Shown: positions 2,313 to 37,785 of the stretch, piece after piece
How positions within the stretch are numbered: the first letter of the stretch is position 1
Layout of the letters: every line of letters starts with the position of its first letter
DNA from: a virus
Direction: 5' to 3' (one strand)
DNA length: 52,756 nt
IMG/VR virus record: IMGVR_UViG_3300009983_000001
Coordinates: 1 to 52,756 of that record
The notes under the pieces: model-generated
What the model saw: the letters and a program-made list of their open reading frames with translations, nothing else
What the model was told of the DNA's origin: nothing
The model's database searches: none
Made by a program: the position numbers and the translations under genes

Positions 2313-4052
2313 ATGTCCACGCTTCTCAACTGGTTACGCGACAAGCTGCGTGCGTGGCTTGACGTTCCTACGCTGCTAACCAAAGCGCCTGTTGAGTTAG
2401 TTGATGCACCCAATCGCATCAGCATCCACCCATCATTGATGCAGCAGACGTTGGTCAAAGCTGGCGAGAACTACATTCAATATCGCAAGGTTGAACCGCC
2501 TTTGTTGCCTGTCAATGTGCGCGGTGATTTCCGCTACGACGCAACCAACGATCCCGGCCGACTTGGCGAACCCGTGCTTGCAATGGATGACGCGCAGAAT
2601 GCGCCCGCGTGGGCGTATCTCAACCAATCGAACTGCGGCATGGGTTTTCCCGGCTACGGCTACTTGAGCGAGCTATCGCAACGCAGTGAATACCGTTCAC
2701 CGGTTGAAACCCTAGCCGACGAGATGACACGCGAGTTCATCGACATTACTGTCAACGGTAAGGCGAGCAGTAAAAAGCGCAAGGCGCGCGGTCAGAAACT
2801 GGAAGATGCTGACGGCGACGGTGATGTCGACGGAGGACTCGAAGACAAAATCGAACAACTAGAAACCGCGATCAAAGAATTCAAGCTTGCTGAGCACTTC
2901 CATAAGCTTGCGACGCTCGACGGTTATTTTGGCCGCGCGCAGTTGTACATCGACATTGACACCGGTAATGGCAACAGGGACGAAATAAACCAACTGCCGC
3001 TTGTAGCCGATAAAGCAACGTTGAAGCGTGGCGCGCTGAAAGGCTTCAAGGTGATCGAACCGATATGGACGACGCCTTATAATTACAACGCAACCGACCC
3101 TACGCGCGGTGATTTCTACAAGCCTGTGGCGTGGTTCGTCATCGGCAAGCGTGTGCACTCTTCGCGCTTGCTGACGTTCATCTCACATGAGGTGCCTGAC
3201 ATCCTCAAGCCTGCGTATAACTTCGGCGGGTTGTCGATGTCGCAGCTTATGGAGCCCTACGTGTTCCAATGGCTGCGCACGCGCAACAGTGTGTCGGACC
3301 TTGTGCATAACTTCTCGGTGATGGTGCTCAAGACTGATATGAATGCGGTGCTGCAAGGCGACGCCGATGGTGCTGCTGCTGCAGGTATGGGCTTGCTAGA
3401 TCGCGCTAAATTGTTTGTAAACACGCGCGATAATCAAGGCTTAACGCTTATCGACATGAAGCGTGAAGAGATGCAAGAGGTACACACCAACCTTTCGGGC
3501 CTCGACAAGCTGCAAGCGCAATCGCAAGAACACATGGCAGCTCCTTCGCACATGCCACTCGTGAAGTTGACCGGCATCACACCTGCAGGCTTGAACGCTG
3601 ACAGCGAGGGTGAAATACAAGTTTGGTACGACCACGTGCAAGCACGCAAAACTTCGTTCTACGGCCCTCACATGCCGCGCGTATTGGAAATCCTGCAACT
3701 TCATCTGTTCGGCGCTATCGATCCTGCCATCGGTTACGCATGGCCGCCATTAAGCGCACCGACCGTCAAAGAGCTGGCGGAGATTCGCAAGAGCAACGCA
3801 GAGACCGACGGCATCTACATCGACAAGGGAGTCATTAGCCCTGATGAGTCGCGCGAACGTGTGGCCGCCGATCCTGACAGCGGTTACAACAACCTATCGG
3901 GTGCTGCCCCCGGCCCTCCCGAAGCGGGGTTGATGGAGCAAGAGCATACGCTCGGTCAGCAAAGTGCGGAAGCGGACCACGAGCGCGGAAAGGAGATGGT
4001 GACGGTGCAGGCGAAGCTTAAACCGGCAGCCCCTAAGCCCGGTAAAGGTTGA
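2313..4052 (+). CDS. Portal protein (DUF1073-type by recollection)
   Basis: 579 aa directly after terL, with an acidic/Lys-rich insert and a charged C-terminus. Size and synteny fit a portal. Confidence 0.8.
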   Translation: MSTLLNWLRDKLRAWLDVPTLLTKAPVELVDAPNRISIHPSLMQQTLVKAGENYIQYRKVEPPLLPVNVRGDFRYDATNDPGRLGEPVLAMDDAQNAPAWAYLNQSNCGMGFPGYGYLSELSQRSEYRSPVETLADEMTREFIDITVNGKASSKKRKARGQKLEDADGDGDVDGGLEDKIEQLETAIKEFKLAEHFHKLATLDGYFGRAQLYIDIDTGNGNRDEINQLPLVADKATLKRGALKGFKVIEPIWTTPYNYNATDPTRGDFYKPVAWFVIGKRVHSSRLLTFISHEVPDILKPAYNFGGLSMSQLMEPYVFQWLRTRNSVSDLVHNFSVMVLKTDMNAVLQGDADGAAAAGMGLLDRAKLFVNTRDNQGLTLIDMKREEMQEVHTNLSGLDKLQAQSQEHMAAPSHMPLVKLTGITPAGLNADSEGEIQVWYDHVQARKTSFYGPHMPRVLEILQLHLFGAIDPAIGYAWPPLSAPTVKELAEIRKSNAETDGIYIDKGVISPDESRERVAADPDSGYNNLSGAAPGPPEAGLMEQEHTLGQQSAEADHERGKEMVTVQAKLKPAAPKPGKG

Positions 4053-4084: not shown

Positions 4085-4360
4085 ATGATCATAGATGATG
4101 ACCCTTTCGGCGCTAACGAACCCGTGCAAGAGGCATGCGCCGTTCACGTGCCTACAGGTTTTAACTACTACAACATCAAACCTCACATCACACGCATGCA
4201 CGGGATGTGGTATTGCATTTGGCCCCTGTGGTTAAGCGGCACCATTACCGATAAAGAAAAAGAGGCGTACGGCCCGTATATGCGTTGGTTAAACGGTGTT
4301 GGTTTGTATGGGCAGCGCATCACCTCTACAGAAGTTCCCGAGCATTTGAGCATTCAATGA
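4085..4360 (+). CDS. Hypothetical Trp-rich protein (moron-like, between portal and MuF)
   Basis: 91-aa ORF whose stop overlaps the next start (ATGA). No recognisable motif. Confidence 0.5.
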   Translation: MIIDDDPFGANEPVQEACAVHVPTGFNYYNIKPHITRMHGMWYCIWPLWLSGTITDKEKEAYGPYMRWLNGVGLYGQRITSTEVPEHLSIQ

Positions 4361-5796
4361 AAAAGCTACGCGCCCCCACACGCAAGCCGGTTGTGTGCAA
4401 TCCAGTGTGGCCTAATGCTGGTGTGCAATCGTGGTACGACGCAAAGCTTGTTGAATTGATCGGCGAGGCTCAGCGCAGCCTGCATAGCGCCCTTGCCTAT
4501 TTGTGGCGCGACATTCCACCGCTATTCACACATGACGAAGCTTTAAATATTGAAGCCGACGCGGCCGGCGTCATGTTCGTTTGCGGCGATCAAATCTTGT
4601 TGCTACATCGCACTGACGGGCAAGGCTGGGCGTTCCCCGGCGGCAGCGTAGAGCCTGACGAGACCGCCGAAGCCGCTGCGCGTCGTGAAGTGTTCGAGGA
4701 AACGCTCTACCCTTGCAACGGGCTTTTAGAGTTGATCGACACACAACCCATTCCTGAAAGCTCGGCATTATTCGCTACGTTTGAATGCGAAGTGATAGAG
4801 CCGTTTATCCCTACGCTTAACAGCGAGCACGACGGCTTTGTGTGGATGACTGTAGCCGATGCGATAGAGATATTAGACGAGCCCGTCGGCAAGGTTTATA
4901 AGCGATTCTTACACCCCGGTGTGCGCCGCACGTTGGAGCATCTTCACGAGCGCCCGGTGAATGACGCCCCCAGCTCTACTAAAGCGTTGCAAGCGTTGCT
5001 TGCGAAATGGAGCAAGCAAGCAATCAAACGGTTCGATCTTGCATCGTTCGATCTTGCGAACAGTTTCGCATCTCGCAGCATGATCGCCACACAAACGGCC
5101 ATGATGACGCAGTTAAAAAACGCGGGTTTTACCGTTGCGTTTAAACCCACACGCGCCAGCATGGAAGCGTACAAGGCTGTTACCGCTGAGAACGTTGGGT
5201 TAATCAAATCTATTCCGCGTAAGTGGCACGAACAAATAGAGCAGAAAGTGTGGAATGCTGTGCGCACCGGCTCTGACTTGAGCAAGTTATCGGTGGAATT
5301 GCGCAATACTTACGGTTCAACAGTAAAGCGCGCCGCATTGATCGCACGCGACCAAAACGCGAAGGCTAAGGCGGTGATTGAACGAGTCCGACAGCAAGAG
5401 CTAGGCATTACGCGCGGTATATGGATGCATTCGCATGCCGGCAAAGAGCCACGGCCCACCCATGTTGCCATGAATGACAAGCCTTACAACTTGAATCAAG
5501 GCATGTACGACAGCGACGAAAAAGCCTACGTGCATCCCGGCGAGTTGATCAACTGCCGTTGCACCATGCGCCCGGTGATTGAAGGCGCGGACGATAACGC
5601 CGACGATGACGAACAACCGTCTAACATCATGCTTGGCGCTGCCCTGCGCAATGCCGAACGCAACAAGGACAAGCCGCGCTTTGCGGAGATGATCAACGAG
5701 CTACGCGAGCTGCGCGCCCAACGCACACGTTGGCGCGGTTCTGACGAGCTGAACTTGCGCGCGGATATTGACAACTTTTTAAACAGTGAGATTTGA
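4357..5796 (+). CDS. Head morphogenesis protein (Mu F / SPP1 gp7-like) with an embedded Nudix hydrolase domain
   Basis: Start chosen at the ATGA overlap (M25 of ORF 4285-5796). Nudix box GSVEPDETAEAAARREVFEE at 4642-4710. MuF-type C-terminal region ...HPGELINCRCTMRPV. Located after portal. Confidence 0.8.
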   Translation: MKKLRAPTRKPVVCNPVWPNAGVQSWYDAKLVELIGEAQRSLHSALAYLWRDIPPLFTHDEALNIEADAAGVMFVCGDQILLLHRTDGQGWAFPGGSVEPDETAEAAARREVFEETLYPCNGLLELIDTQPIPESSALFATFECEVIEPFIPTLNSEHDGFVWMTVADAIEILDEPVGKVYKRFLHPGVRRTLEHLHERPVNDAPSSTKALQALLAKWSKQAIKRFDLASFDLANSFASRSMIATQTAMMTQLKNAGFTVAFKPTRASMEAYKAVTAENVGLIKSIPRKWHEQIEQKVWNAVRTGSDLSKLSVELRNTYGSTVKRAALIARDQNAKAKAVIERVRQQELGITRGIWMHSHAGKEPRPTHVAMNDKPYNLNQGMYDSDEKAYVHPGELINCRCTMRPVIEGADDNADDDEQPSNIMLGAALRNAERNKDKPRFAEMINELRELRAQRTRWRGSDELNLRADIDNFLNSEI

Positions 5797-5798
5797 AC

Positions 5799-6014
5799 AT
5801 GCCACGAATGACACCGCAGCAAGCCGCCGAACAACTACTCGGCACGGCTCAATCGTTAGATGAGGTGGTCGGCGAAGGCATCGACACCTTGCCGCGCGCA
5901 TGGTGCCACGAGCTAGACACGCACGTTATGTGTTGCGAGTGTTGCGGCTGGTGGTTTGAAAGTGATGAAGTAGACGACGACGGCAACTGCGAGGATTGTG
6001 TAACATGCGATTAG
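5799..6014 (+). CDS. Small Cys-rich acidic protein (putative zinc ribbon)
   Basis: ATG at 5799 within ORF 5793-6014. Contains CCECCGWW...CEDCVTCD. Confidence 0.5.
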   Translation: MPRMTPQQAAEQLLGTAQSLDEVVGEGIDTLPRAWCHELDTHVMCCECCGWWFESDEVDDDGNCEDCVTCD

Positions 6015-6722: not shown

Positions 6723-7931
6723 ATGCTCGCATTCGACCGCACCCTTGCAGACCGTGACGTCATCGCTTTTGACCGGGCGAGCGCTCGTAGTTTTGACGCT
6801 GACGGCCGCATGCATGTAACCGATTGCCGAGTGTCCAAGGCGAACGTGTGTCCCTATTACGGCCGCGAAATTCCCAATGCGCAGCGCCTCGGCCTTGACC
6901 CCAACAAGGTCTACATGATCTATCGCGATCCTGCGGAACTTGAGAAAGCCGCGCCCACATTTCGCAACGTGCAGTTGCTGATGAAGCATGACAAGGTCAA
7001 TGCGCAAGACGCGAAACTCGACAAAACTGTGGGCACCGTAGGCAACGTTCGGTTTGACGGTACATACCTTGTTGCCGATCAACTGACAGTATGGACCAAG
7101 GAAGGCATAAACCTGATTGAGACCGAAACTGCTGCCGAGTTGTCATCGAGCTATCGTTACGTTGCAGACATGACGCCGGGCATAACGCCCGAAGGTGTTG
7201 CATTCGACGGTAGAATGCGCGACATTATGGCGAACCACGTCGCGTTAGTGCGCGCGGGCCGTGCAGGTCCAGACGTTTATGTTAACGATGAATCTATTTC
7301 TTTGGAGTCTCCCACAATGAAGCGTCCCTTGTTGCTCGCTCAACTGATTGCATCCGGTTTGGTTGTTGGCGGTACCGAGGAACAGCGCATTGCGCTCGAT
7401 TCCAAGCTTGCCGACATGACGGCCAAAGACGGTGAAGCCGCAGAAATGGAAGACGACCCCGAGAATCCCGGTGCAAAGCGCAAGAAGATAAACCCCGGCA
7501 AAGGTGAACCTACCAAGCCCGGCGGCGCGCTGGCCAGTGACGAGCAAATCGAAGCCGCTATCGTAGCCAAGGGTTACGTTACGCTTGCCGATGCAAAGAC
7601 TCTCGCTGAAGACGCAGCGAGCCGCGCAACTATCGACGCTGTCGCCAACGTCAATGCCCTGCACACTGCACGCGAAGCCGTAAAGCCTCTCGTAGGTGTC
7701 GTGGCGATGGACTCGGCCGAGGCCGTCTACCGCTTCGCATTGGATCACGAGAAAGTCGCGCTTGATGGCGTGCACCCCTCTGCATTCCCTGCTTTGATTG
7801 CCCAAGTCGTAGCGCGTAAGACTGCGGTGCCTGTCGCGCCGGCCGCGCCTGTGATGGCAGCCGATGCTGCTGCCGCAGTCAGTGCTGCGTTGCCCGGTCT
7901 TGGACGCATCGCCGTAGGCGACCCGAAGTAA
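6723..7931 (+). CDS. Scaffold / prohead protease-like protein (DUF2213-like by recollection)
   Basis: 402 aa upstream of the capsid gene. Conserved N-terminal about 190 aa, then a charged and Ala/Pro-rich C-terminal half typical of scaffolds. Confidence 0.6.
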   Translation: MLAFDRTLADRDVIAFDRASARSFDADGRMHVTDCRVSKANVCPYYGREIPNAQRLGLDPNKVYMIYRDPAELEKAAPTFRNVQLLMKHDKVNAQDAKLDKTVGTVGNVRFDGTYLVADQLTVWTKEGINLIETETAAELSSSYRYVADMTPGITPEGVAFDGRMRDIMANHVALVRAGRAGPDVYVNDESISLESPTMKRPLLLAQLIASGLVVGGTEEQRIALDSKLADMTAKDGEAAEMEDDPENPGAKRKKINPGKGEPTKPGGALASDEQIEAAIVAKGYVTLADAKTLAEDAASRATIDAVANVNALHTAREAVKPLVGVVAMDSAEAVYRFALDHEKVALDGVHPSAFPALIAQVVARKTAVPVAPAAPVMAADAAAAVSAALPGLGRIAVGDPK

Positions 7932-9914: not shown

Positions 9915-10412
9915 ATGTACGGCAATAACGCCCTCGGTGTGTACCCACATGCCGAGGGCGTTCCTATTTCGGGTGTCTATTACAACCGCGCATCGTCGCT
10001 TGTTCCCGGTGCTGAGGCGGGCTTCCGTGCGGGCAATGGGGGCGTCGCAATTGGGCGCTTTGGGTGGGCTGAGCCTGACGGTACGGTCTACAACGCGCGC
10101 ATGTCTGCCGAAGGCTTGCTCGGCCTCGTAGCGATTCAATGGGGTGATTGGCGGCGGGTGTTTTGGGATGAGACGACACGAGCGTGGCGGATTCGTCAGG
10201 GGCTTAACTTGACGATGATGTCAGCGGCCCCCGGTATATTGGTGCATATCCCCGGCGGCGCGCAGTGGAACCAGCGTATTTACACGAGCCCGCTAGACGG
10301 CATTCCCGTTGCGGGGTACGCTGTGGGCTTAGAGCCTACTCCGTGGGCGGTCGGTCGGCCTTGTACGGCCGGCGGTCTTTCTCTTCTCACAACTTGGAAC
10401 CCCCTCACATGA
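9915..10412 (+). CDS. Virion structural protein, paralog B
   Basis: ATG at 9915 (M23 of ORF 9849-10412). SLVPGAEAGFRAGNGGVAIGRFGWAEPDGTVYNA parallels 7986-8714. Confidence 0.55.
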   Translation: MYGNNALGVYPHAEGVPISGVYYNRASSLVPGAEAGFRAGNGGVAIGRFGWAEPDGTVYNARMSAEGLLGLVAIQWGDWRRVFWDETTRAWRIRQGLNLTMMSAAPGILVHIPGGAQWNQRIYTSPLDGIPVAGYAVGLEPTPWAVGRPCTAGGLSLLTTWNPLT

Positions 10413-10840
10413 GCGAAACAAGCAACGCATCGAATATGGTCATTGTTGGCTGCAAGCTGCCAAACGGCTTGCATTTGGACCTGAAAAACAAAGATGGTGA
10501 AAAAGTACGTGTCACCATCGTAGGTGCCAACGCTTCGCACATCATTGGCGGGTACGGTATGACGCCGAATGTGTCAGCCGAGTTCATGGCCGAATGGTTC
10601 AAGCGCAACGCAAAGCACCCTGCCGTGGTCAACAAGGAAATCTTCATTCATGGTGATCAAGCCAGCGCCCGCGCGATTGCAAAGGAACATGCGGAAGTTG
10701 TAACCGGCTTGGAGCCTATCGACCCTGTCGCGCGCGGCATGCTCAATAACGAAAACGGCGAAGTCGATAAAAAAGAGCTGCGCAAGTTTCGTCAATCGCA
10801 AGCTGAAAACCCACGTGCCGGCCGTCAGATTGTAGAGTAA
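10409..10840 (+). CDS. Hypothetical head-module protein
   Basis: ATGA-coupled internal start of ORF 10265-10840; 143 aa. Confidence 0.6.
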   Translation: MSETSNASNMVIVGCKLPNGLHLDLKNKDGEKVRVTIVGANASHIIGGYGMTPNVSAEFMAEWFKRNAKHPAVVNKEIFIHGDQASARAIAKEHAEVVTGLEPIDPVARGMLNNENGEVDKKELRKFRQSQAENPRAGRQIVE

Positions 10841-10846: not shown

Positions 10847-11347
10847 GTGTCTGTAGCACCTTGCGCGCCTGTTGTTGTTACCCGGGGCATTGTTGTCTTT
10901 GAACCCGCTGTGTTCAAGGCACAATACCCTGCGTTTGCAACAATAAGCAATACCGTGCTGCAGACTGATTTCGATATCGCAACGCTTTTTTTGAACAACT
11001 CGTGTTGCAGCGTCGTCAAGGATGGCATTGTACGCGAGCGCTTGCTTTACATGCTCGTTGCTCACATCGCCGCGCTGTTGCAAGGCGAGAATGGCAAGCC
11101 ACCCTCGGGCATCGTCGGCCGTGTGGATAAAGCCAGCGAGGGCACTGTGTCGGTGTCTGCTGCCTACGTTAACGACATGAGCATGTCCGAGGCGTATTTC
11201 GCACAAACACCCTATGGCGTGATGTTCTGGACCGCAACGGCAGGTTACCGCGCGTTTCATTACGTGCCGGCACCGCTTAATGGTTGCATTGGTCGTGGTC
11301 CGGGCTTCTACGGCCCCGGCTATGGTGGCCCCGGCGGCTGTTGCTAA
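10847..11347 (+). CDS. Head-tail connector protein (DUF4054-like by recollection)
   Basis: GTG start, 166 aa, positioned after the capsid module. Confidence 0.55.
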   Translation: MSVAPCAPVVVTRGIVVFEPAVFKAQYPAFATISNTVLQTDFDIATLFLNNSCCSVVKDGIVRERLLYMLVAHIAALLQGENGKPPSGIVGRVDKASEGTVSVSAAYVNDMSMSEAYFAQTPYGVMFWTATAGYRAFHYVPAPLNGCIGRGPGFYGPGYGGPGGCC

Positions 11348-11848
11348 ATGGCATTCAAAGCCATTACCGCAAGCGTTGAAGGCGGCCGAGCGATGGAACG
11401 GCATCTCAAGGAAATAGAGAAACAGCTCGGCCGAGGCGCGCATGTGCGTGTGGGGTTTCTTGCAAGCGCCACCTATCCCGCAGGTGTAGACGATGAGAAA
11501 GCCGGGCTACACGTGGCGCAGGTTGCCGCGTGGAACGAATGGGGAACCGCTACGAGCCCCGAGCGTCCATTTTTCCGTGACATGGTCGAGAAGAAAAGCC
11601 CGCGATGGGGCGTGACGCTTGGCAACATCCTGCGCAAAAATAATTACGACGGGGAACGCTCGTTGTCATTAATGGGCGAAGTGGTAAAAGGTCAGCTTGT
11701 GCAATCTATCCGCAACTGGTCGTCACCGGCGAATGCGCCGCGTACTGTCGCAAAGAAAGGTTTTAACAAACCGCTGATTGACACCGGTGTTATGTTGCGG
11801 TCGGTCGACTACCAAGTCGTGACCGGCGAGGATTCAGGCGATGATTAA
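11348..11848 (+). CDS. Head-tail joining / neck protein (HK97 gp10-like, tentative)
   Basis: 166 aa, directly abuts the previous stop. Synteny only. Confidence 0.5.
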   Translation: MAFKAITASVEGGRAMERHLKEIEKQLGRGAHVRVGFLASATYPAGVDDEKAGLHVAQVAAWNEWGTATSPERPFFRDMVEKKSPRWGVTLGNILRKNNYDGERSLSLMGEVVKGQLVQSIRNWSSPANAPRTVAKKGFNKPLIDTGVMLRSVDYQVVTGEDSGDD

Positions 11849-12257
11849 CGTTCACGCGGCCGCGAACAATGCGGTGCAAGTCGTCAACCCTGACGTGGTG
11901 GGCACTTTCTATGCATCCACGGGCAACACGCCAAACGCATCGTTTAAACAGGTGCCGGGCTATGCTGCCGGCGTCAACGTTCCGCTGCAGTTGCAAGCAA
12001 TAAGCGCCCGTGATTTAAAACACCTCGAAGGCATGAATCTGCAAGGCGTGTTGCGCTCGGTTCACATGTACGGCAACACGCAAGGCGTTGTGCGAGTGAC
12101 CCAACAAGGCGGCGATTTGCTTTACTTTCCCGAAGTTCCTGCGGGAACGTCCCGCGTGTGGAAAGTCGTCAAGGTCGTTGAAACGTGGGCCGATTGGTGT
12201 CACCTTATCGTAAACCTGCAAACCGACGCCTCCCCACCCTCGCCGCCGCCCCCATAG
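11841..12257 (+). CDS. Neck/tail completion protein (hypothetical)
   Basis: 138 aa, 8-nt overlap with the upstream gene. Confidence 0.5.
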   Translation: MINVHAAANNAVQVVNPDVVGTFYASTGNTPNASFKQVPGYAAGVNVPLQLQAISARDLKHLEGMNLQGVLRSVHMYGNTQGVVRVTQQGGDLLYFPEVPAGTSRVWKVVKVVETWADWCHLIVNLQTDASPPSPPPP

Positions 12258-12258
12258 C

Positions 12259-12792
12259 ATGCCGTTAACCGTCTCTATCACTCAGCAAGACGTATATGCC
12301 GCCCTTGGCGCGTTCGTTACGTCTGTGGTGCCTGCGGGCGTCGCAGTGATACAACTTCCGGTTGATCGCGCTGCGATGCCGCCGCCTGTGCCGGGATTCG
12401 TGGGAATGACCGCAAACCTGCAAACGCGGATCATGACCAACCTTGACCGCTGGAATCCTGCGAACCCTGCGCCGGTTGCGATCAACATCGAGCAAGCAAT
12501 TAAATTGACCGTAAAATTAGATTGCTATGGTCCGGCGGCTGCTGATTGGGCCGTCATGCTGTCGACGGTTTTGCGCGATGAATACGGTGTCGATTCCCTT
12601 GCGCCGACCTTGGCTCCGCTTTATACCGAGATGCCACGCTTCATGCCGCTGACCAACGCCGAGGAACAATACGAACAACGGTGGATTGTAGAGGCGCAAT
12701 TGCAATACAATCCAGTAATAACGACGCCGATGCAGTTTGCAAACGCGGCAAATGCTGACCTTATCAACGTAGACGTGAGTTATCCGCCATGA
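12259..12792 (+). CDS. Tail terminator-like protein (hypothetical)
   Basis: 177 aa immediately upstream of the sheath gene, ATGA-coupled to it. Confidence 0.5.
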   Translation: MPLTVSITQQDVYAALGAFVTSVVPAGVAVIQLPVDRAAMPPPVPGFVGMTANLQTRIMTNLDRWNPANPAPVAINIEQAIKLTVKLDCYGPAAADWAVMLSTVLRDEYGVDSLAPTLAPLYTEMPRFMPLTNAEEQYEQRWIVEAQLQYNPVITTPMQFANAANADLINVDVSYPP

Positions 12793-14300
12793 ATTCAATC
12801 CCCGCAAGTCAACTGGTGAATGTCATCCCGTCTGTGTTGAGTGCCGGCGGCAACCCGCTGTCGCTTAATACCGTGATGTTGACTGACAGCACACGTGTTC
12901 CAATCGACGCCGTGCAAGCCTTTGCAACCGTCGAAAGTGTACAAAACTTTTTCGGTCCTACTTCAATCGAAGCCGACCTTGCTGCTGTTTATTTTAACGG
13001 TTTCGATACTGCAACAGCGTTGCCAAGCGTGTTGTATTTTTCGCAGTTCAACGAAGCCGCAGTTGGCGCGTATTTACGTTCGGCAACGTTCGACGGTGTA
13101 ACACTCACACAGTTGCAAGCCCTGTCGGGTAACTTGATTACTGTTGTCAACGGCGTGTCTTCCACATCACTTGCGATTAACCTTGCGAGCGCGACAAGTT
13201 TTTCAAACGCCGCCGCGTTGATTCAAACCGGCATCCAAGGCGGTACGCCTGCGAGCACTGCCACAGTCACTTATGACTCGCAGCTTAAAGCGTTCGTGAT
13301 TCACTCGGCTACGACTGGCGACGCTTCTACCATTGCGTTTGCAACGGGCACGTTGTCCACTGGTCTTAAGCTCACCTCGGCAACCGGTGCAGTGCTGTCG
13401 CAAGGTTCGGCTATCGCAACTGCTGCCGGCGCTATGGCTCAAATCGTCAATGTGACGCAGAATTGGGCCGCGTTCATGACCACGTTCGAGCCCGACCTTG
13501 ATGTCATGATTGACTTTGCCGAATGGGTGCAAACAACCAACGATCGTTATATGTATGTTGGTTGGTATTCGGATGCAGCACCGCTCGCGGGTCCTGCACC
13601 TGCATCATTCCCCGGCTTGGTTGTAGCTGCGAACATGGATGGTGTCACGCCGATCTATGAACCCGCGACCGATGACGGCAACGGCCGTAAGGCTGCGTTG
13701 ATTTGCGGCATCACTGCATCAATTGATTACTTTCAAACGCAAGGCCGCGTGTCTTACGCGTATCGTGGCCAAGCGGGACTCGTTGCGGATATCACTGATG
13801 CAACGCAGGCGCTCAACCTTGAAGCGAACGAATCGAATTTTTACGGTGCGTATGCTACCGCCAACGATCGCTTCGTGAATTTGCAACGCGGCGTAATGCC
13901 GGGCGCGTGGAAATTCATTGATGCCTATGTCAATCAAATTTGGTTGAACAACGCACTGCAACTCGCATTCATGGAGCTGCTCACGAGCATCAATTCGCTG
14001 CCATACAACGCCACGGGTTACAACCTGTTGCGTGCGGCTGCACTGGACCCGATTCAAGCCGCATTGAACAACGGCGTGATACAGCCCGGCGTCACCTTGT
14101 CGAACTCGCAGCGTGCGCAGGTAAACACTGCCGCAGGTGCCAACATTGCGGATACGCTGCAAACGTCCGGCTACTACCTGCAAATTTCAGACGCCAGCCC
14201 AATCACGCGCGCCAATCGAGGCTCGCCTCCTATGACGCTGTGGTATACGGACGGCGGCAGCATCCAAAACATTGAACTCTCGTCGATCGACGTTCAGTAA
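12789..14300 (+). CDS. Tail sheath protein (DUF3383-like by recollection)
   Basis: 503 aa, followed by tube-sized and chaperone genes. This order is typical of contractile tails. Confidence 0.7.
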   Translation: MNSIPASQLVNVIPSVLSAGGNPLSLNTVMLTDSTRVPIDAVQAFATVESVQNFFGPTSIEADLAAVYFNGFDTATALPSVLYFSQFNEAAVGAYLRSATFDGVTLTQLQALSGNLITVVNGVSSTSLAINLASATSFSNAAALIQTGIQGGTPASTATVTYDSQLKAFVIHSATTGDASTIAFATGTLSTGLKLTSATGAVLSQGSAIATAAGAMAQIVNVTQNWAAFMTTFEPDLDVMIDFAEWVQTTNDRYMYVGWYSDAAPLAGPAPASFPGLVVAANMDGVTPIYEPATDDGNGRKAALICGITASIDYFQTQGRVSYAYRGQAGLVADITDATQALNLEANESNFYGAYATANDRFVNLQRGVMPGAWKFIDAYVNQIWLNNALQLAFMELLTSINSLPYNATGYNLLRAAALDPIQAALNNGVIQPGVTLSNSQRAQVNTAAGANIADTLQTSGYYLQISDASPITRANRGSPPMTLWYTDGGSIQNIELSSIDVQ

Positions 14301-28412: not shown

Positions 28413-28742
28413 CTACCGGCTCCGTCTGCGCCGTTTCTCAAACTGTCTGTACCATCCATGCGGCTGCGGCTCCGGCTTCATCGCCGGAGACATCTCATGC
28501 GGCTTTAAGGCCCGCACAATCATTTTATCGAGTAGCTCGCCGGCGACAATATCCAATTCGTCAGGCGTGCATCCGTGCAATTCAGCGGCAAGGAAGTCGT
28601 AGCCGCCGTGGGTGCCATGCGCCCACAGGTGCGCCTCAATCCGGGCTAGGTCTACCGCCGTAAGATGATCGCACACGATGGTAATCTGTGGGCACGGTTC
28701 GTCAGGCGGCGGAAAGCTGACGATGTCGTCGGCGTCGATCAT
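28413..28742 (-). CDS. Hypothetical protein
   Basis: Internal ATG at 28742 overlaps the helicase stop (ATGA); 109 aa. Confidence 0.5.
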   Translation of the reverse strand: MIDADDIVSFPPPDEPCPQITIVCDHLTAVDLARIEAHLWAHGTHGGYDFLAAELHGCTPDELDIVAGELLDKMIVRALKPHEMSPAMKPEPQPHGWYRQFEKRRRRSR

Positions 28743-30205
28743 GCGGCCTCTCTTGCGGTAATCCGCTCGTCCATCAAGAACAACGAAGTCTTTGCGCGAG
28801 TGGTTGCAACATAGCATAGGTTGCGTTCTTGCTGCTGCTGCCAATCAAGACGAGCCCACGGAGCCGGGCACTGCGACGCGTTCAACCAGAACACGCGCTC
28901 GCCTTCGAGCCCCTTCGCTTTATGGATGGTTGCGAGCGTGATAGACGCAGCGGCATCGGAGAACAGCGACTCGATCAAACGGCACAGCGCCGGCACCGTG
29001 CGGTCATTCTCTTCGAGTGCGTCGATTAGCGTCATTATGCAGTCGCGTTTGTCGATGATCGCTTCGGCTTTCGCGTCTTGTTTCTTGGCAATAGCTTTCT
29101 CGTGTTCGCGAGCGCTCCATGTGAACAACTTATCGGTCAAGCCATCAATGCCCTTACCGTTTAATCGATTGATCAATGAGACGAGGCCCGCGCCAATTTC
29201 ACGGCCCATGATCTTGGCCGGCACGCGTAGCTTAATGAGTCGATATACTAATGAAATAAGCGGCTTGGTAGTGCGGCACACCACTAGATCGCCACTTGTA
29301 AACGTGCTGGCGTTCCAACGCTGCCCAATGTCTTTTACTTCGCCAGCCGGCGCGCCCGGTGCGGCCTCGATGTGTTTCACCCACTTGTGGGCATAAGCAA
29401 CAATGCTCGTTGGGCAGCGATAGGAAACCGTAAGCGGCAACTCGATGCAATCGAACTCGTCAGCAATCAACTGTAGCGAGTTGGAATCGGCACCGCGAAA
29501 ACCATAAATCGCCTGTGCGGGATCACCCACGGCTAACAGCCGACTGCAAGGCTTCATGATTTTGCGAATGATAGCGCGCTGTATGGCGTTGGTGTCTTGC
29601 GCTTCGTCAACAAACACATTGTCGAATTTCGGCAGGCTGATGCCCTCGCGCACTGCCAGATACAGCAAATCGTCGAAGTCCACGAGAGGGGATTCGTTAG
29701 ACCATCGCAGCAAGTCGCTTGCCAATTCTGCGGCGCGTTCTGGTGTGGCGCGTTCGCTGTCGAGTTCGAGGTCGTGATATTCAATCAACGACAGCCAAGC
29801 GTCTTGCGTGTCTGCGATCAAACAACCGATGCCCGCGTTACGACCGAGACCGACAAGACGACAAATAAACGTGCCGTACATTTTGAAATCGGAGCCTTGC
29901 AAGTTTTGCTCGCAGATTATGCGCAACTTGTCCGCTACAACTTCACGTTGATTTTTGAACTGCATCACCGCCGAATACGTCAACGAGTGGAACGTGCGAC
30001 CGTTGACTCCGCGCCCCTTCATGGCTGCCGCAATCGACTTGTTGAACGCTAATACGACGTGCGAGCCTTTGGTGCGCTTAACCGCTTCCTCGACGGTCGT
30101 TGATTTGCCGGAGCCTGCAACCGCTTTAATAATTGCGTTGCCGGTGCCGGATTCAACGAAATCGAAAATGTCAACTTGGTAAGGCGACCATGTGCGAGTA
30201 TTCAT
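28739..30205 (-). CDS. UvrD/Rep-family SF1 DNA helicase
   Basis: 488 aa. Walker A AVAGSGKSTT, Walker B VFVDEAQD, and C-terminal ...ATIHKAKGLE...YVATTRAK. Confidence 0.85.
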   Translation of the reverse strand: MNTRTWSPYQVDIFDFVESGTGNAIIKAVAGSGKSTTVEEAVKRTKGSHVVLAFNKSIAAAMKGRGVNGRTFHSLTYSAVMQFKNQREVVADKLRIICEQNLQGSDFKMYGTFICRLVGLGRNAGIGCLIADTQDAWLSLIEYHDLELDSERATPERAAELASDLLRWSNESPLVDFDDLLYLAVREGISLPKFDNVFVDEAQDTNAIQRAIIRKIMKPCSRLLAVGDPAQAIYGFRGADSNSLQLIADEFDCIELPLTVSYRCPTSIVAYAHKWVKHIEAAPGAPAGEVKDIGQRWNASTFTSGDLVVCRTTKPLISLVYRLIKLRVPAKIMGREIGAGLVSLINRLNGKGIDGLTDKLFTWSAREHEKAIAKKQDAKAEAIIDKRDCIMTLIDALEENDRTVPALCRLIESLFSDAAASITLATIHKAKGLEGERVFWLNASQCPAPWARLDWQQQQERNLCYVATTRAKTSLFLMDERITAREAA

Positions 30206-30220
30206 GCGGGCAGCTCCGTT

Positions 30221-30260
30221 CGTTCAGTGTGGAGCAATCTTAACTGACGGGGTCGTCAGT
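30221..30260 (-). promoter_or_regulatory. Conserved 40-nt promoter/leader block with palindrome (copy 1 of 3), upstream of the helicase gene
   Basis: cgttcagtgtggagcaatcttaaCTGACGGGGTCGTCAGt. The same block occurs at 49473-49513 and 49982-50021. On the minus strand, TGGACA and TAAGAT flank the palindrome. Confidence 0.6.
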
Positions 30261-30278
30261 TGTCCAGTGACGTACGTC

Positions 30279-32141
30279 TCAGTCTTCCCACTTCCCGAAA
30301 CGTTGTGCTTCCCAAGCGTCGGGCACCTTAATTGGCCACGGTTGGCCGTCTTCGCATACCGCCCAAGCTGGCAGCGGCCGCACGCAATCCATATAACCGG
30401 CAATGCTGCCGACCCCCTCCGGTATCTCACACACTTGTTCGTCATGAGTGTGCATTATGACTGGATAGCCGGCACGCTCCAAACGCAATAACGCGTCGGC
30501 TTGAATCTCCCGGCACATGTGGGAGATGACGTTTTGTGTTTGAACCCCGCCGTACAGCGACATTCGCACCCAACCTATTTTGCCCTTCGTTGCATTCGAG
30601 TTACTTCCCTCGTAACTCATCTCGAATTCCCATGGGCTTGCATAGTTGCGTTGCGAGGGGGTCAGGCGTGGCGCGTGATAGCGAATGAAACCGCCGGAGG
30701 GCGGCCGGCAATACAACACGTCTTCATGTACTTGATACAAAACCCCAAGGCGCGAGCCGGGGTTCGAGTTGAAGCATTCACCGGGTTGCAGGATCGCCGA
30801 TATGGCTGCGCCTTCGAGCCCGAATAAAAGTTGCTGTTCGTCGTGCTTAAACTTATTGATGGTTTGGCCACCCCAAAACTTGACAATATTGGGGATAGCG
30901 TCGCGCGTCTTCAATACCACGGCTTTGATTGCATCGTCATCACCGAGTAGATCGTCAGCGCCGAATCGCTTCCAACCATTCACCCACGCGCCGAAGTCTG
31001 CCGACAATACCGCCAGCTTGCCGAGCTGCCGATCGTCGTGGTGCTTGCCGTGCTGTTTCTTGTACGCTTGGTACTCTTCGACCGACTTACCCGTCAGCAA
31101 TGCGGCTTGCGCTTCGTAAATCTTACCGTGGGTTCTGAACACGTCAATACGCCATTGCTCGTTAGCCATGCAAGATGTTGCGACCGCCTGTATAGCGGTG
31201 AAGTCCGCAGACATCAAACGGTGCCCCGGCTTGGCAATGATCATCGAACGCAGGCAGCTTGCAACTACTTCGAGGGCATCTAACGCGCCGTTGTTCTTTG
31301 GATCGAGCGCCCACGCGGACCCCTCGCCGTATTCGTATTCGAGCAATTCAATAGATCGGCAACGGATGATTGCGAGCGCGTGCTCGACTTGTTCGGGTTT
31401 TGAAAAAACGCCCTTGTATAAGTTGGCAGGCTGCACGCCTCTACCGTTCCACAGTGAGGTGTGTGCGCCGTAATAGGTGTATTGATCGTAAAGCCGACCC
31501 GACGCTGTCGTCTGCGATCTAAACGCGTAATACTTTTTGCAACTACCAAACGCGAGGATTTGCCGGATACGCAAGACACGCAACACGGCGGGCGGGTAGT
31601 CGGTGCGCTTCAATGCGTCGGCAAGTGTGTCTTCGTCAAGCTCGTAAAGGTAAACGCCTTGCGTGCGCATCCATTCGAGCATTTTTGCGACTTCTGTTGA
31701 CTTCTGCACCGCATGGTTTGTTATTTCACGCAGCTCGCTGTTGTAGCGCAACTCGGCTTGCTCAATGATGACAATGCAATCTTCGACCGCTGCGGTATCG
31801 ACTTGCATGCCGCGCATATTGATGCGCAAGTCGAGCTTCCACACATCTTGCTCGCGCGGCGTTAGATCGGGAACACGGGCACTAACGTGCGCCTCGGTCA
31901 CGATGTCTTGCTTGTTGTATTCGTAGAACCGCGCGAAGTCATCGGCGGCCGTGAATGGTGTCCAGCGCAACGACTGATTTGCCTTCGTGGGTTTCTTCGG
32001 CATTGTCAGCTTGCGAATTAGATCGCTGCCGGCTTTATCTTTTTGTTGCGATACGTTCAACACTGCGCCGAGTTCGCCAAGTGCGCCGGGGTATGCGGAC
32101 GCGCGAGCCTTCGCGGCGCTGCAATGTGCTTGATCGGTCAT
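30279..32141 (-). CDS. Family-A DNA polymerase, large fragment (Exo III motif plus polymerase domain)
   Basis: 620 aa. YNKQDIV (Exo III-like), motif A-like SADFTAIQAV, motif B-like RQLGKLAVLSADFG, motif C MHTHDE. Confidence 0.8.
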   Translation of the reverse strand: MTDQAHCSAAKARASAYPGALGELGAVLNVSQQKDKAGSDLIRKLTMPKKPTKANQSLRWTPFTAADDFARFYEYNKQDIVTEAHVSARVPDLTPREQDVWKLDLRINMRGMQVDTAAVEDCIVIIEQAELRYNSELREITNHAVQKSTEVAKMLEWMRTQGVYLYELDEDTLADALKRTDYPPAVLRVLRIRQILAFGSCKKYYAFRSQTTASGRLYDQYTYYGAHTSLWNGRGVQPANLYKGVFSKPEQVEHALAIIRCRSIELLEYEYGEGSAWALDPKNNGALDALEVVASCLRSMIIAKPGHRLMSADFTAIQAVATSCMANEQWRIDVFRTHGKIYEAQAALLTGKSVEEYQAYKKQHGKHHDDRQLGKLAVLSADFGAWVNGWKRFGADDLLGDDDAIKAVVLKTRDAIPNIVKFWGGQTINKFKHDEQQLLFGLEGAAISAILQPGECFNSNPGSRLGVLYQVHEDVLYCRPPSGGFIRYHAPRLTPSQRNYASPWEFEMSYEGSNSNATKGKIGWVRMSLYGGVQTQNVISHMCREIQADALLRLERAGYPVIMHTHDEQVCEIPEGVGSIAGYMDCVRPLPAWAVCEDGQPWPIKVPDAWEAQRFGKWED

Positions 32142-32263
32142 TTGCCGTCTGAGGGTTTAGTAGGTTTAGGTTTTGCGTGATGTATAAGCCATTCATGTTC
32201 AAGCGCATCTACGCGTAATTGATACCAGAAAAAATCCCACTCGCTAGGAGTAGATTGGCTCAT
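32138..32263 (-). CDS. Micro-ORF 4 between the polymerase fragments (41 aa)
   Basis: MSQSTPSEWDFFWYQLRVDALEHEWLIHHAKPKPTKPSDGK. ATGA overlaps at both ends. Confidence 0.4.
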   Translation of the reverse strand: MSQSTPSEWDFFWYQLRVDALEHEWLIHHAKPKPTKPSDGK

Positions 32264-32451
32264 GACTGCTTACCCTCAGATTCACGTGGTAAGCGCACAA
32301 TCCCATAACCCTTTGCTTGCAGCTCTCGCAACAGAATCAATCCGCGATCTATATAGTCACCGCAATTTTTATCTTCCGAGACGATCCGAACTATCTGACC
32401 AAAGCGCCAAGCCTCGTCATTGTTTGGCTGGTTGTCATAGGTGAGTATCAT
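32260..32451 (-). CDS. Micro-ORF 3 between the polymerase fragments (63 aa)
   Basis: ORF track 32260-32451. ATGA overlaps at both ends. Confidence 0.5.
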   Translation of the reverse strand: MILTYDNQPNNDEAWRFGQIVRIVSEDKNCGDYIDRGLILLRELQAKGYGIVRLPRESEGKQS

Positions 32452-32663
32452 GATGTTGGTTCTCCTGCCTCAAGAGGTTGTAACCGAGCCAGCAGCGATC
32501 TGTTGGTCTCGTGGTGGCAAGCTGCATCGCCATTACCCTTGTTGATTTGTGGCGTATCGCAATACTGGCCAGCGCGCAGATAACAGCAATGCCAGCTAGC
32601 ACAACGAACAGGGCGGTTCGGCAAATCTCCGCGCTGCACTCTAGTGACATTTGGCACTTTCAT
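32448..32663 (-). CDS. Micro-ORF 2 between the polymerase fragments (71 aa, Cys-rich)
   Basis: ATG at 32663 within ORF 32448-32720. ATGA overlaps at both ends. Contains CASWHCC...C...C. Confidence 0.4.
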   Translation of the reverse strand: MKVPNVTRVQRGDLPNRPVRCASWHCCYLRAGQYCDTPQINKGNGDAACHHETNRSLLARLQPLEAGEPTS

Positions 32664-32851
32664 GACTGGGAATCTCGTGTGGTCTTCGGTGAGCGGTACG
32701 GAGGCTCGGGCTCTAACCAAAGCCGCCCGCGTCCAAATTCATCGACGCAGTAAAACTCTTGTTCAAGACGCTCAGGAACAAGACTGGCGTTCGGTGTGTA
32801 CGTGCGAAAATTGCCAGTCGGCCGCTTCTCAATGAACTTGTGATCTTCCAT
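32660..32851 (-). CDS. Micro-ORF 1 between the polymerase fragments (63 aa)
   Basis: ATG at 32851, preceded by ggagagaag. Confidence 0.45.
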   Translation of the reverse strand: MEDHKFIEKRPTGNFRTYTPNASLVPERLEQEFYCVDEFGRGRLWLEPEPPYRSPKTTRDSQS

Positions 32852-32879
32852 CACTGCTTCTCTCCGTCTGTAAATGGTT

Positions 32880-33383
32880 TCATAGGGGCGGCAAGCCTTG
32901 GTCGTCGCAATGAAACGGGGGCCAGCCTAACACCGGCACGCAATGAACATTCCACACAACCCATTCAAAGTTAACGTTGTGCGCTTCGAGTTGGCCGCCG
33001 GCTGCAACGTGTTCGAGTAAGTGCCACGGGTGCAACCAATGGCCGTTTAAGTGATTGCGGTCTAGTGGCGTGTAACGTGGGTATGACTTGTAAGGTATCG
33101 ACGGATGAGGCCGCCACCATTGCACGCCGTTGCCGTCTTTGAGATTCCACGCGACTGACAACACCTCAAAGCTGTGATGCTCGACGTAATTACGCGTACC
33201 TACCGCTTTGAGGCCGCGATTTTGGTCTGACAACCCCGGCAGCGACTCCCACTTCTGTTGTAGATGATTCCACACAAGGCCCGCTTCACTGTACGTTTCA
33301 AAGTCCACGTCGGGCAGTATTGTTGCAAGCCCGATGCCCGCAACGTATTGAGTGCCAGCGCGCGCGAGATGCCAATCGGTCAT
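32880..33383 (-). CDS. Family-A DNA polymerase, small fragment (3'-5' exonuclease Exo I/II motifs)
   Basis: 167 aa. DVDFETYSEAG (Exo I-like DxE) and HNVNFEWVVW (Exo II-like). Ends where homologous single-chain enzymes would continue. Confidence 0.7.
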   Translation of the reverse strand: MTDWHLARAGTQYVAGIGLATILPDVDFETYSEAGLVWNHLQQKWESLPGLSDQNRGLKAVGTRNYVEHHSFEVLSVAWNLKDGNGVQWWRPHPSIPYKSYPRYTPLDRNHLNGHWLHPWHLLEHVAAGGQLEAHNVNFEWVVWNVHCVPVLGWPPFHCDDQGLPPL

Positions 33384-33601
33384 GGTTTTCTTTTATTTGG
33401 AGCGGGGGCAACACTGACAATTACGCGAACAAATCGAACTTCCTTTAACCATTCTGCCTGTGCTTTCGGATCACAGCGGCAGCCTTCAAGGTAAGCGGCT
33501 TTTGCTGCTTTTCGAGTTCGACGAATGGCGTAATGCCACACCCATTCACTTCGGCCAGTGACAATGGGAGCCCACATCAGCGATGGTTTTACTGTGTTCA
33601 T
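33380..33601 (-). CDS. Hypothetical basic protein
   Basis: ATG at 33601 (M7 of ORF 33380-33619). ATGA-coupled to the exonuclease fragment. Confidence 0.45.
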   Translation of the reverse strand: MNTVKPSLMWAPIVTGRSEWVWHYAIRRTRKAAKAAYLEGCRCDPKAQAEWLKEVRFVRVIVSVAPAPNKRKP

Positions 33602-33621
33602 GATAGAGCCTTCGCCCATCT

Positions 33622-33683
33622 CCCCGCTGTTGCTCGTTAGTTTCGTGCCATGTAGACAAGTCTTACATCGAGTAACAGCGGGG
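33622..33683 (-). other. 15-bp-stem hairpin downstream of the SSB region
   Basis: ccccgctgttgctcg ... cgagtaacagcgggg (1 mismatch) with a 32-nt loop. No U-run follows. Confidence 0.35.
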
Positions 33684-33693
33684 CGGGACTCAA

Positions 33694-33790
33694 CTAGAAC
33701 GGGATATCGTCATCGAACGCAGGATCGTATGGGTACATGCTGCCGGGGTAGAGATACCCCGGCAACCTACCGTTCACGATGCCCTCAAAG
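33694..33790 (-). promoter_or_regulatory. Candidate +1 recoding site CTT_TGA and the 30-codon +1-frame extension ending FDDDIPF
   Basis: Minus strand reads atg gtg agg CTT TGA ggg. The +1 frame is open only from inside this site and reads EGIVNGRLPGYLYPGSMYPYDPAFDDDIPF*. Confidence 0.45.
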
Positions 33791-36000: not shown

Positions 36001-36257
36001 TTAAAACTCACTATTGTGCGCGGGTTTTGTTTCCGATGTTCGTTAATCAGATTTGGTTGATATTCGATATTTTCAACACTGCCATATTGCAGGTGCTTAC
36101 CTGACGAGTCCGTCAGTTGGAAGCTCGTGTCGGACAATAACCGAATACATCTACCGTCTGCAAGGTGTAATACAGGGCCAGTTCGGGCCTTATGTTGTTT
36201 AAGCAATTCAAACGGACCAAGCGGGCCGTTAGGTTCAACTAATGTCAACGCGTCCAT
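35997..36257 (-). CDS. Hypothetical protein
   Basis: 86 aa, with its stop ATGA-coupled to the nuclease start. Contains a perfect palindrome copy at 36101-36116. Confidence 0.4.
   Translation of the reverse strand: MDALTLVEPNGPLGPFELLKQHKARTGPVLHLADGRCIRLLSDTSFQLTDSSGKHLQYGSVENIEYQPNLINEHRKQNPRTIVSFK
36101..36116. promoter_or_regulatory. Perfect palindrome CTGACGAGTCCGTCAG
   Basis: Exact match to CTGACG-N4-CGTCAG, 100 nt upstream of the nuclease start, inside ORF 35997-36257. Confidence 0.5.
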
Positions 36258-37725: not shown

Positions 37726-37768
37726 AACTTTTACTCCAAAATGTGCAGCATAAAAATATTTGTGGCTG

Positions 37769-37784
37769 CTGACGATATCGTCAG
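37769..37784. promoter_or_regulatory. Perfect palindrome CTGACGATATCGTCAG in the divergent intergenic region
   Basis: Exact match, between 36781-37725 (-) and 37841-39553 (+). Confidence 0.65.
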
Positions 37785-37785
37785 A

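Follow-up and report, generated by a model that had tools for sequence, protein, structure and literature searches.

A Nudix domain inserted into a MuF-type minor head protein of a phage: a candidate capsid-packed enzyme

Why should a minor head protein of a phage carry a nucleotide-hydrolysing domain within its fold? This question is raised by a gene of the IMG/VR virus record IMGVR_UViG_3300009983_000001, which was analysed from position 1 to position 52,756 (this 52,756-nucleotide stretch is called the window below). The gene encodes a 479-aa protein in which a Nudix domain is embedded in a protein of the MuF/SPP1 gp7 family. The answer that we favour, with modest confidence, is that the product is a gp7/MuF-type minor head protein carrying a predicted catalytically competent Nudix pyrophosphohydrolase, which would be packed in the capsid and delivered with the DNA. 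The gene and its parts are as follows.

4357..5796, plus strand: Nudix-MuF minor head protein gene, 479 aa and stop codon, identified as an open reading frame (ORF) with its translation; the start is backed by the homolog alignment and by an ATGA overlap
4357..4530, plus strand: MuF N-terminal segment (aa 1-58), a short strand and a long helix H21-52, with the motif PN.GV..WY...L
4531..4956, plus strand: inserted module (aa 59-200), consisting of a flexible linker, the Nudix domain, a C-terminal helix with an LHPG motif and a second linker
4558..4902, plus strand: Pfam NUDIX domain (PF00293, aa 68-182; E 2.8e-20, 73.1 bits, cutoff 21.1)
4642..4710, plus strand: Nudix box G96-x5-E102-x7-R110 E111-x2-E114 E115 (aa 96-118), sequence GSVEPDETAEAAARREVFEETLY
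4825..4845, plus strand: E157-H158...W163 motif, located past the box in the Nudix module and invariant throughout the family
4957..5592, plus strand: MuF core (aa 201-412), three long helices and a beta-rich C-terminal subdomain
5233-5568, plus strand: Pfam Phage_Mu_F domain (PF04233, aa 293-404; E 3.4e-10, 41.1 bits, cutoff 29.6)
5593..5793, plus strand: C-terminal three-helix tail (aa 413-479), lineage-specific, with predicted helices 423-435, 442-455 and 462-477 (AlphaFold 2, AF2)

An earlier note on this DNA, made from the letters alone, had reported a Nudix box at nt 4642-4710 inside a module of roughly nt 4560-4900; the box was found exactly there, and the borders of the Pfam domain agree with the estimate for the module. 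The canonical final G of the box is replaced by L117, and the box ends E114 E115 T L Y. The EH..W motif downstream aligns to its equivalents in MutT (5x1x) and NudG (2rrk) and is absent from the T4 NudE alignment. MuF sequence lies on both sides of the Nudix domain, as had been described, with the N-terminal helix before it and the strings KRAALIARDQNAKA (aa 324-337) and HPGELINCRCTMRPV (aa 393-407) after it. PHROG 324 'head morphogenesis' spans aa 207-424 (E 1.2e-58), and TIGR01641 gave 31.7 bits, which is under its cutoff of 39.65. The C-terminal tail has no family match and occurs in about 30% of the homologs, including some that have no Nudix domain. The identical 479-aa protein is present on seven metagenomic contigs.

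An AF2 model built from 120 homologs had a pLDDT of 91.7 and a pTM of 0.72 and was weak only at aa 55-67 and aa 171-210. These two stretches are the linkers flanking a confident Nudix domain (pLDDT of at least 89 over most of aa 68-170), and the helix 21-52 of the N-terminal segment was modelled with a pLDDT above 90. A Foldseek search of the Protein Data Bank (PDB) with the Nudix part returned the Dcp2 catalytic domain, MutT1, Ap4A hydrolases, YmfB and NUDT12 (E about 1e-7, probability 1.00, target-normalised TM about 0.7), while the MuF part of the model matched no solved structure in the PDB. Models of plain MuF proteins of 279-300 aa (BFVD minor capsid components) were aligned with a target-normalised TM of 0.81-0.84 over 412-428 query columns, so that the Nudix domain is bridged as a gap. 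Structure prediction, which had been proposed as a check, thus yields a Nudix fold within a MuF scaffold. The protein belongs to the Nudix superfamily by its box, profile and alpha/beta/alpha fold, and to the MuF/SPP1 gp7 family by profile, gene position and the fold of the whole scaffold. A separate feature of the MuF core was observed in the alignment: residues H358, H369, C400 and C402 (nt 5428-5565, aa 358-402) are invariant in 120/120 aligned homologs, together with W356, S359 and R366. This pattern of histidines and cysteines looks like a possible metal-binding site.

The next question is whether the enzyme was added at one end of the protein or placed inside it. Six close relatives lack the Nudix domain and run from '..TPPLF' (aa ~58) straight into 'A.DA.S.TK' (aa ~201). 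Residues N20, G22, V23, W26, Y27 and L31 of the N-terminus are invariant and common to the Nudix-bearing and the Nudix-less homologs. The clearest pair consists of the Nudix-less protein P0104 and the Nudix-bearing protein P0030, which agree at 94% of positions in the MuF core and at 81% in the N-terminal 70 residues; about 129 aa are cleanly missing from P0104. The MuF protein of phage Pa193 aligns in two blocks, its residues 22-73 with query residues 16-65 and its residues 79-278 with query residues 211-408. The Nudix domain therefore interrupts the MuF protein between its N-terminal helix (aa 1-58) and its core (aa 201-412); it is a genuine insertion, as the earlier note had read it, and not a terminal fusion: the Nudix-less relatives, P0104 among them, the plain MuF models and the Pa193 protein all bridge the junction. 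The MuF fold remains complete around the insert.

This architecture is not confined to the window. A survey of MuF homologs, which had been suggested, revealed more than 100 clusters (at 90% identity) with both NUDIX and Phage_Mu_F in a large protein collection, many of them from contigs of 50-55 kb, besides the six close relatives without the insertion. Identity to the query goes down to 44%, and the Nudix-bearing homologs span 44-93%. The strict box G-x5-E-x7-RE-x2-EE was found in 114/114 of them. Residues R110, E111, E114, E115, E157, H158 and W163 are invariant despite a mean family identity of about 50% in the module; the MuF core has 25 invariant columns. The six Nudix-less proteins fall at no fewer than four separate places in the scaffold tree, nested among Nudix-bearing sequences. 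On this tree the Nudix module has been lost by precise in-frame deletion repeatedly, at least four independent times. The insert is therefore dispensable for the MuF scaffold and accessory to its morphogenetic role.

The insert also evolves differently from its scaffold. Values of dN/dS were computed per module against one homolog, P0003 (contig L011), which is 85% identical to the query. For the Nudix insert, dN/dS was 0.34 at 62% amino acid identity and a dS of 0.96, and for the MuF core it was 0.04 at 97% identity and a dS of 0.51; the N-terminal helix gave 0.10 and the C-terminal tail, which is strongly constrained, 0.07. Among pairs with scaffolds at least 90% identical, the identity of the Nudix domains ranges from 55 to 96%, and only 34 of the 114 sequences have one and the same nearest neighbour by Nudix module and by scaffold. 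Judged from these sequence comparisons, the insert is a diversification hot-spot, whether by faster evolution, by cassette exchange or by both. The elevated dS argues for some recombination, and its near doubling in the insert (4531-4956) relative to the adjacent core (4957-5592) hints at recombination breakpoints at the linker boundaries.

Other proteins that carry the same Nudix clade bear most directly on where the enzyme is meant to go. A word-index search with the Nudix module alone was uninformative (one match, with the parent protein missed), and an exhaustive profile search was used instead. With a profile made from 40 inserts, 1.84 billion representatives were screened; 41 proteins had E-values under 1e-30 and 6,709 under 1e-10. 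Most of the 150 best matches are multidomain proteins of 300-1,950 aa in which the Nudix domain is N-terminal, internal or C-terminal. Pfam and PHROG scans of the 99 nearest Nudix relatives identified as fusion partners DUF2213 (PF09979, Pa193_gp24; 'head maturation protease' in PHROG) in 18, Phage_Mu_F in 7, and also portal and the uncharacterised phrog_6216. ADP-ribosyltransferase (ART) domains (ART-PolyVal, ADPrib_exo_Tox, ART) were present in four of the six longest relatives, sometimes with portal and DUF7178, and ART-type domains stand beside Nudix in 3/99 other relatives. One MuF relative has the alternative order Nudix, N-terminal helix, MuF. A related observation concerns the best two relatives outside MuF, P0122 (545 aa) and P0123 (704 aa), in which a pair of Nudix domains in tandem precedes a DUF2213/head-maturation-protease region; here the Nudix cargo is duplicated on one head protein.

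In a scan of species-representative genomes, most matches were plain MuF proteins in proteobacterial prophages. On a 222.8-kb contig of Paraburkholderia sp. RL18-085-BIA-A (L040), a plain 270-aa MuF protein (9992-10804) is followed slightly downstream by a 629-aa Nudix-DUF2213 fusion (11096-12985) with the Nudix domain at its N-terminus; residues 155-341 of this fusion are 52% identical to aa 8-195 of the DUF2213 protein of the window. The same arrangement, a plain MuF and a Nudix domain heading the DUF2213 protein, was found in an alphaproteobacterial metagenome-assembled genome (L045). By sequence comparison, then, the Nudix domain changes carrier between MuF and DUF2213 in orthologous head modules. 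N-terminal Nudix domains related to the insert (about 36% identity) were also found in gp055 of Yersinia phage vB_YenM_29.18 (L010, 4004-5635) and gp44 of Shewanella phage vB_Sb_QDWS (L009, 4875-6722). Both genes come after TerS, TerL, portal and a MuF-sized ORF, in the slot of the scaffold or protease. The deposited annotation of the Yersinia protein as a 'glycosyl transferase' looks wrong. Taken over these proteins, the cargo is portable among carriers whose common property, as far as can be judged from their families, is residence inside the head. The repeated tethering of one clade to head-interior proteins, together with the carrier swap, supports a capsid-targeted cargo enzyme. The general idea of the earlier note, an enzyme pre-loaded in the virion, is strengthened by the presence of this clade on MuF, DUF2213, portal and polyvalent ART proteins.

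How such a protein could be packaged and delivered is suggested by analogy with SPP1 gp7, T4 Alt, the T4 internal proteins and the MuF toxins. The SPP1 gp7 protein enters the procapsid by binding to the portal (gp6), is present in few copies and is dispensable for assembly (PMC6316719); it is required for full infectivity and aids the initiation of infection (PMC6316719; PMC5576092). MuF homologs are virion components (PMC6316719, PMC5576092), and for MuF proteins with C-terminal toxins delivery to the host has been proposed (PMC5576092). In Pa193, gp20, gp21 and gp24 were detected by LC-MS in mature virions, and gp24 (DUF2213) is bound inside the five-fold vertices (PMC11456595). The Pa193 MuF protein, which is homologous to the query, is gp20 or gp21 by RefSeq gene order. 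On these precedents the MuF part of the present protein would dock on the portal during procapsid assembly, a contact that we infer for this phage from SPP1, so that a few copies of the enzyme would be enclosed in the capsid. The Nudix-MuF protein itself would then presumably be packaged and ejected: the enzyme would accompany the DNA out through the portal and tail channel and be active in the host cytoplasm ahead of any phage gene expression. The weakest step of this scheme is the substrate, which would be a low-abundance nucleotide with a pyrophosphate bond; the candidates are NTP or dNTP derivatives, Ap(n)A, (p)ppGpp-like alarmones and 5'-triphosphate or Np(n)N/NAD-capped RNA ends. If its copy number is as low as that of gp7, the enzyme could realistically deal only with scarce targets.

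That the insert diverges fast suggests a target tied to the conflict between host and phage. A narrower version of packaging and delivery can be formulated, which we regard as rather unlikely: a pre-loaded counter-defence or takeover enzyme, of which few copies are delivered and which hydrolyses a low-abundance pyrophosphate-containing host molecule before phage transcription. Its candidate targets would be a TIR-derived ADP-ribose (ADPR) signal, an Np(n)N/NAD RNA cap or an alarmone, and diversification and carrier hopping would reflect an arms race. Most known phage counter-defence proteins are made after the start of infection, and virion-delivered enzymes, which act earlier, are hard to find; a head-packed Nudix enzyme could destroy a nucleotide signal, a cap or an alarmone of the host at the very start of infection. 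Should this version prove true, the protein would be the first experimentally tractable virion-delivered anti-defence enzyme that degrades a small molecule. In any case the cargo family is widespread in uncultured phages, with its catalytic residues conserved and the rest of the insert evolving fast.

Several results weigh against delivery of such an enzyme. No cultured phage with a Nudix-MuF fusion was found: in a tblastn search of the full protein against 50,697 phage records, none was matched at a coverage of at least 80%, and the matches were to the MuF half only. A megablast search of the gene against the same records gave no match, and a relative of the Nudix module occurs in only 9 of them. 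At the 1-2 copies per capsid of SPP1 gp7, abundant metabolites would be out of the enzyme's reach. The tail channel would have to admit a folded Nudix domain of about 15 kDa, and carriers annotated as 'head maturation protease' are degraded or expelled at maturation in some phages. The higher dS of the insert may be due to recombination rather than selection. The nearest characterised relatives are house-cleaning enzymes, which alone do not suggest a role in conflict, and the co-occurrence with ART in four of the six longest relatives, together with the published placement of such proteins in an NAD-ADPr network, points to an ADPr-type substrate.

The specificity of Nudix enzymes is notoriously hard to read from sequence. 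When the insert profile was compared with solved structures, MutT (5x1x), NudG and Ndx1 gave 54-56 bits over the whole domain, including EH..W, and with NUDT2, NudB, NudI, RenU, DIPP and Dcp2 they made up the highest-ranked matches (48-56 bits). No ADP-ribose pyrophosphatase (ADPRase) of the NudF, NUDT5 or NUDT9 type was found among the best 60 solved-structure matches. The proline that ADPRases have about 15-16 residues past the box is not conserved; P131 and P133 lie in a variable stretch. The NCBIfam model of the NudE ADP-compounds hydrolase gave only 16-18 bits against a cutoff of 169, and no NCBIfam equivalog came near its cutoff, the only matches being generic sub-threshold Nudix ones, so that no substrate can be assigned from this source. 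T4 NudE matched the insert profile with 33.7 bits and over its N-terminal half only (34% over 65 aa), and by this comparison of scores the label 'T4 NudE-like' is not reproduced for this clade. A weak match to the PADLOC candidate system PDC-S07 (E 3.4e-9) was judged to be generic Nudix similarity. These profile affinities weakly favour a nucleoside tri- or polyphosphate or a cap-type substrate. Cyclic oligonucleotides and cyclic mononucleotides (CBASS, Pycsar) have no pyrophosphate bond. By established Nudix chemistry they are therefore excluded as substrates, and cyclic oligonucleotides, which had been listed for assay in the earlier note, are implausible.

The same delivery could serve an NAD- or ADPR-derived substrate instead, an explanation that we think rather unlikely. 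The targets would be signals of the TIR/Thoeris type (gcADPR isomers, His-ADPR, N7-cADPR), free ADPR or NAD, or ADP-ribosylated or NAD-capped macromolecules. Relatives of the clade share polyvalent proteins with ART-PolyVal, ADPrib_exo_Tox or ART domains, and the contextual inference published in 2022 agrees in its passages on these proteins (PMC9503650). T4 NudE.1 cleaves NAD, NAD-RNA, ADPR, flavin adenine dinucleotide (FAD) and Ap3A in vitro. For signals at nanomolar to micromolar concentrations, few molecules of the enzyme could be enough, and a fast-evolving insert fits an arms race. However, the profile comparisons above speak against such a substrate, through the lack of an ADPRase in the top 60 and of the conserved proline and through the low, half-domain score of T4 NudE. 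ART is the commonest enzyme in polyvalent proteins according to a passage of the same paper (PMC9503650), and its co-occurrence is therefore weak evidence for a common pathway. Among the window ORFs scanned, no ART, Macro, NADAR or other NAD-network partner was found, and a literature search turned up no phage Nudix shown to counter Thoeris. The NAD- or ADPR-type substrate that the earlier note had considered is thus not supported by the profile matches or by the scanned gene neighbourhood.

The Nudix domain might also never be delivered and act late in the producing cell, on the nucleotide pool or on RNA 5' ends during head assembly, with the fusion serving co-expression only or with the Nudix removed before or at maturation. 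This we consider doubtful. It would suit the nearest characterised relatives, which are the house-cleaning NTP/dNTP pyrophosphohydrolases MutT, NudG, NudI and NudB, the place of the gene in a late structural operon, the annotation of some carriers as head maturation proteases, and the example of T4 NudE.1, which is soluble, non-packaged and auxiliary and the mutant of which only delays lysis. A cytoplasmic enzyme, however, needs no tether, yet this clade has been fused repeatedly to head-interior proteins (MuF in two positions, DUF2213, portal and polyvalent virion proteins) and swaps carriers within orthologous modules. In addition, the low stoichiometry of MuF makes it a poor expression route for a metabolic enzyme, and rapid divergence is unusual for a house-cleaning role. 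It is far less probable still that the insert is a non-catalytic Nudix fold with a structural or ligand-binding role (binding of nucleotides or DNA ends, or a spacer). Inactive Nudix-fold proteins exist, such as the NrtR-type regulators (mentioned in PMC13464706), and SPP1 gp7 binds DNA according to the title of Stiege et al. 2003 (cited in PMC5576092). Against this stand the strict catalytic box in all 114 homologs, the complete conservation of R110, E111, E114, E115, E157 and H158 at about 50% mean module identity, and the clean loss of the module while the MuF gene stays. An active enzyme packaged by way of its MuF scaffold therefore remains our preferred reading.

Fusions of this type and the idea of their delivery were already published in 2022, and the present protein adds a further example. 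Iyer, Burroughs, Anantharaman and Aravind (Viruses 14:1977, PMC9503650) described, in the passages on these fusions, Nudix domains fused to MuF, portal and a capsid-processing peptidase, located in late or structural clusters and enriched in contractile-tailed phages. From comparative genomics they proposed, in the same passages, packaging in the head and injection to counter NAD-derived signals, and placed the proteins in an NAD-ADPr network. The same carriers as in those passages were recovered here, namely MuF, DUF2213 ('head maturation protease'), portal and ART polyvalent proteins. The fusions are called T4 NudE-like there, whereas the present clade is nearer to MutT, NudG and Ndx1. As in the head-fused or polyvalent virion effectors of Iyer et al. 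(2017, 2022), an effector is located on a head protein within a packaging and morphogenesis cluster. The insertion topology, the carrier swapping in orthologous modules, the recurrent deletion and the fast evolution of the insert do not figure in those 2022 passages (PMC9503650). The present additions are incremental: an insertion topology that departs from the rule of C-terminal cargo in MuF toxins, a module lost precisely and more than once, its exchange between MuF and DUF2213 as carriers, fast evolution of the insert and an affinity to MutT/NudG rather than to NudE or ADPRases. The literature searches found no phage Nudix experimentally shown to be virion-packaged or anti-Thoeris. The Paraburkholderia prophage and the Yersinia vB_YenM and Shewanella vB_Sb_QDWS phages offer cultured test systems for the 2022 hypothesis, with the Nudix-less variants as natural controls; Paraburkholderia sp. 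RL18-085-BIA-A is a cultured host in which prophage induction and virion proteomics are feasible.

Comparison with better-known systems places the protein more closely. The MuF polymorphic toxins (Jamet et al. 2017, PMC5576092) are alike in that MuF serves to bring an enzymatic domain of variable kind into the capsid, from which it is delivered to the next host. Their cargo is C-terminal and toxic, with a downstream immunity gene, and they are linked to temperate phages (PMC5576092). The present cargo lies near the N-terminus (aa 58-201), and no conserved partner ORF is present; the genome has its own replication module (DNA polymerase, primase, helicases). Nudix is not mentioned by Jamet et al. 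(PMC5576092). A toxin-immunity pair was accordingly rejected, since the cargo is not C-terminal, no adjacent small ORF is conserved and the three-helix tail has no family match. SPP1 gp7 and the Pa193 'head morphogenesis' protein share a homologous scaffold and a gene position just downstream of the portal gene. The Pa193 MuF is 30% identical over query aa 211-408, and its N-terminal helix aligns too; plain MuF proteins have about 270-330 aa, and the present protein adds an enzyme module of about 142 residues and a 67-aa C-terminal tail. A similar principle is described in passages of PMC9503650 and PMC5512222 for T4 Alt and the T4 internal proteins, which are placed in the capsid in advance and enter the host along with the DNA. 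In T4 a cleavable capsid-targeting sequence is used, with an ART cargo, whereas here the whole MuF scaffold is the predicted targeting device and the cargo is a Nudix domain. T4 NudE.1 is also a phage Nudix with an intact box, promiscuous in vitro on the compounds named above and auxiliary in vivo, where its substrate is still unsettled; unlike the insert it is a stand-alone protein of 151 aa, is not known to be packaged and lacks the EH..W and LHPG motifs. The MutT/NudG-type and Ap(n)A hydrolases (Ndx1, NUDT2), which gave the best full-domain profile matches and good Foldseek matches, are free cytoplasmic enzymes, unlike the virion-embedded module.

The surroundings of the gene agree with its assignment to the head. 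Pfam scans of the window ORFs revealed a structural module of the E217/Pa193 type, i.e., contractile-tailed, and the Nudix-MuF gene belongs to its late structural operon. The neighbouring features are as follows.

TerS: on the contig, upstream of TerL
556-2301: TerL
2313-4052, plus strand: portal protein, presumed docking partner of MuF (PF06381 Phage_portal_3, E 2.8e-79)
4085-4360, plus strand: 91-aa ORF between the portal and Nudix-MuF genes; its stop overlaps the next start codon (ATGA)
5799-6014, plus strand: 71-aa Cys-rich ORF (..CCECCGWW..CEDCVTC), phrog_2855 (E 1.5e-9), 3 nt after the Nudix-MuF gene
6723-7931, plus strand: DUF2213/Pa193_gp24-like head-interior protein (PF09979); in related phages such proteins carry this Nudix clade instead

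The gene had been described earlier as a 479-aa gene after the portal gene. Its size is correct, but it does not follow the portal gene directly, as the 91-aa ORF intervenes. This ORF matched no Pfam or PHROG family; homologs of it are found both in the Nudix-less L002 (4459-4659, 36% identity, no gene called) and in L011, so that it is unlinked to Nudix. The 71-aa ORF has no homolog in the Nudix-bearing L011 or the Nudix-less L002 and is therefore not a conserved partner or immunity gene. Three small ORFs separate the Nudix-MuF gene from the DUF2213 gene. The gene is thus found in the portal-adjacent position of a head module with the order TerS, TerL, portal, 91-aa ORF, Nudix-MuF, DUF2213, cement (XM1_gp53-like) and major capsid protein. 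These are followed by an E217_gp27-like protein and the tail terminator and, further downstream, by sheath (E217_gp31_N), tube (E217_Gp32) and an SLT-containing protein.

At about 52.8 kb, the window amounts to a nearly complete phage genome; the identical gene is also present on a 52,774-bp metagenomic contig. Composition is even across the window (GC about 55%) and no tRNA genes were found in it, so that neither feature points to a host; no integrase was found among the window ORFs scanned, a set that did not include all small ORFs. The other genome arm encodes a DNA polymerase, two helicases, a primase, a Gp2.5-like single-stranded DNA-binding protein (SSB) and an exonuclease. This replication module (28739-43271), in which the SSB is of the SSB/annealing type and the primase has 872 aa, is podovirus-like, and the genome is a mosaic of such replication genes and myovirus (E217/Pa193-like) structural genes. 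Within the replication module, a DUF1643 protein (36245-36784, minus strand; E 6e-24; phrog_3230, unknown function) adjoins an uncharacterised 314-aa protein (phrog_11133).

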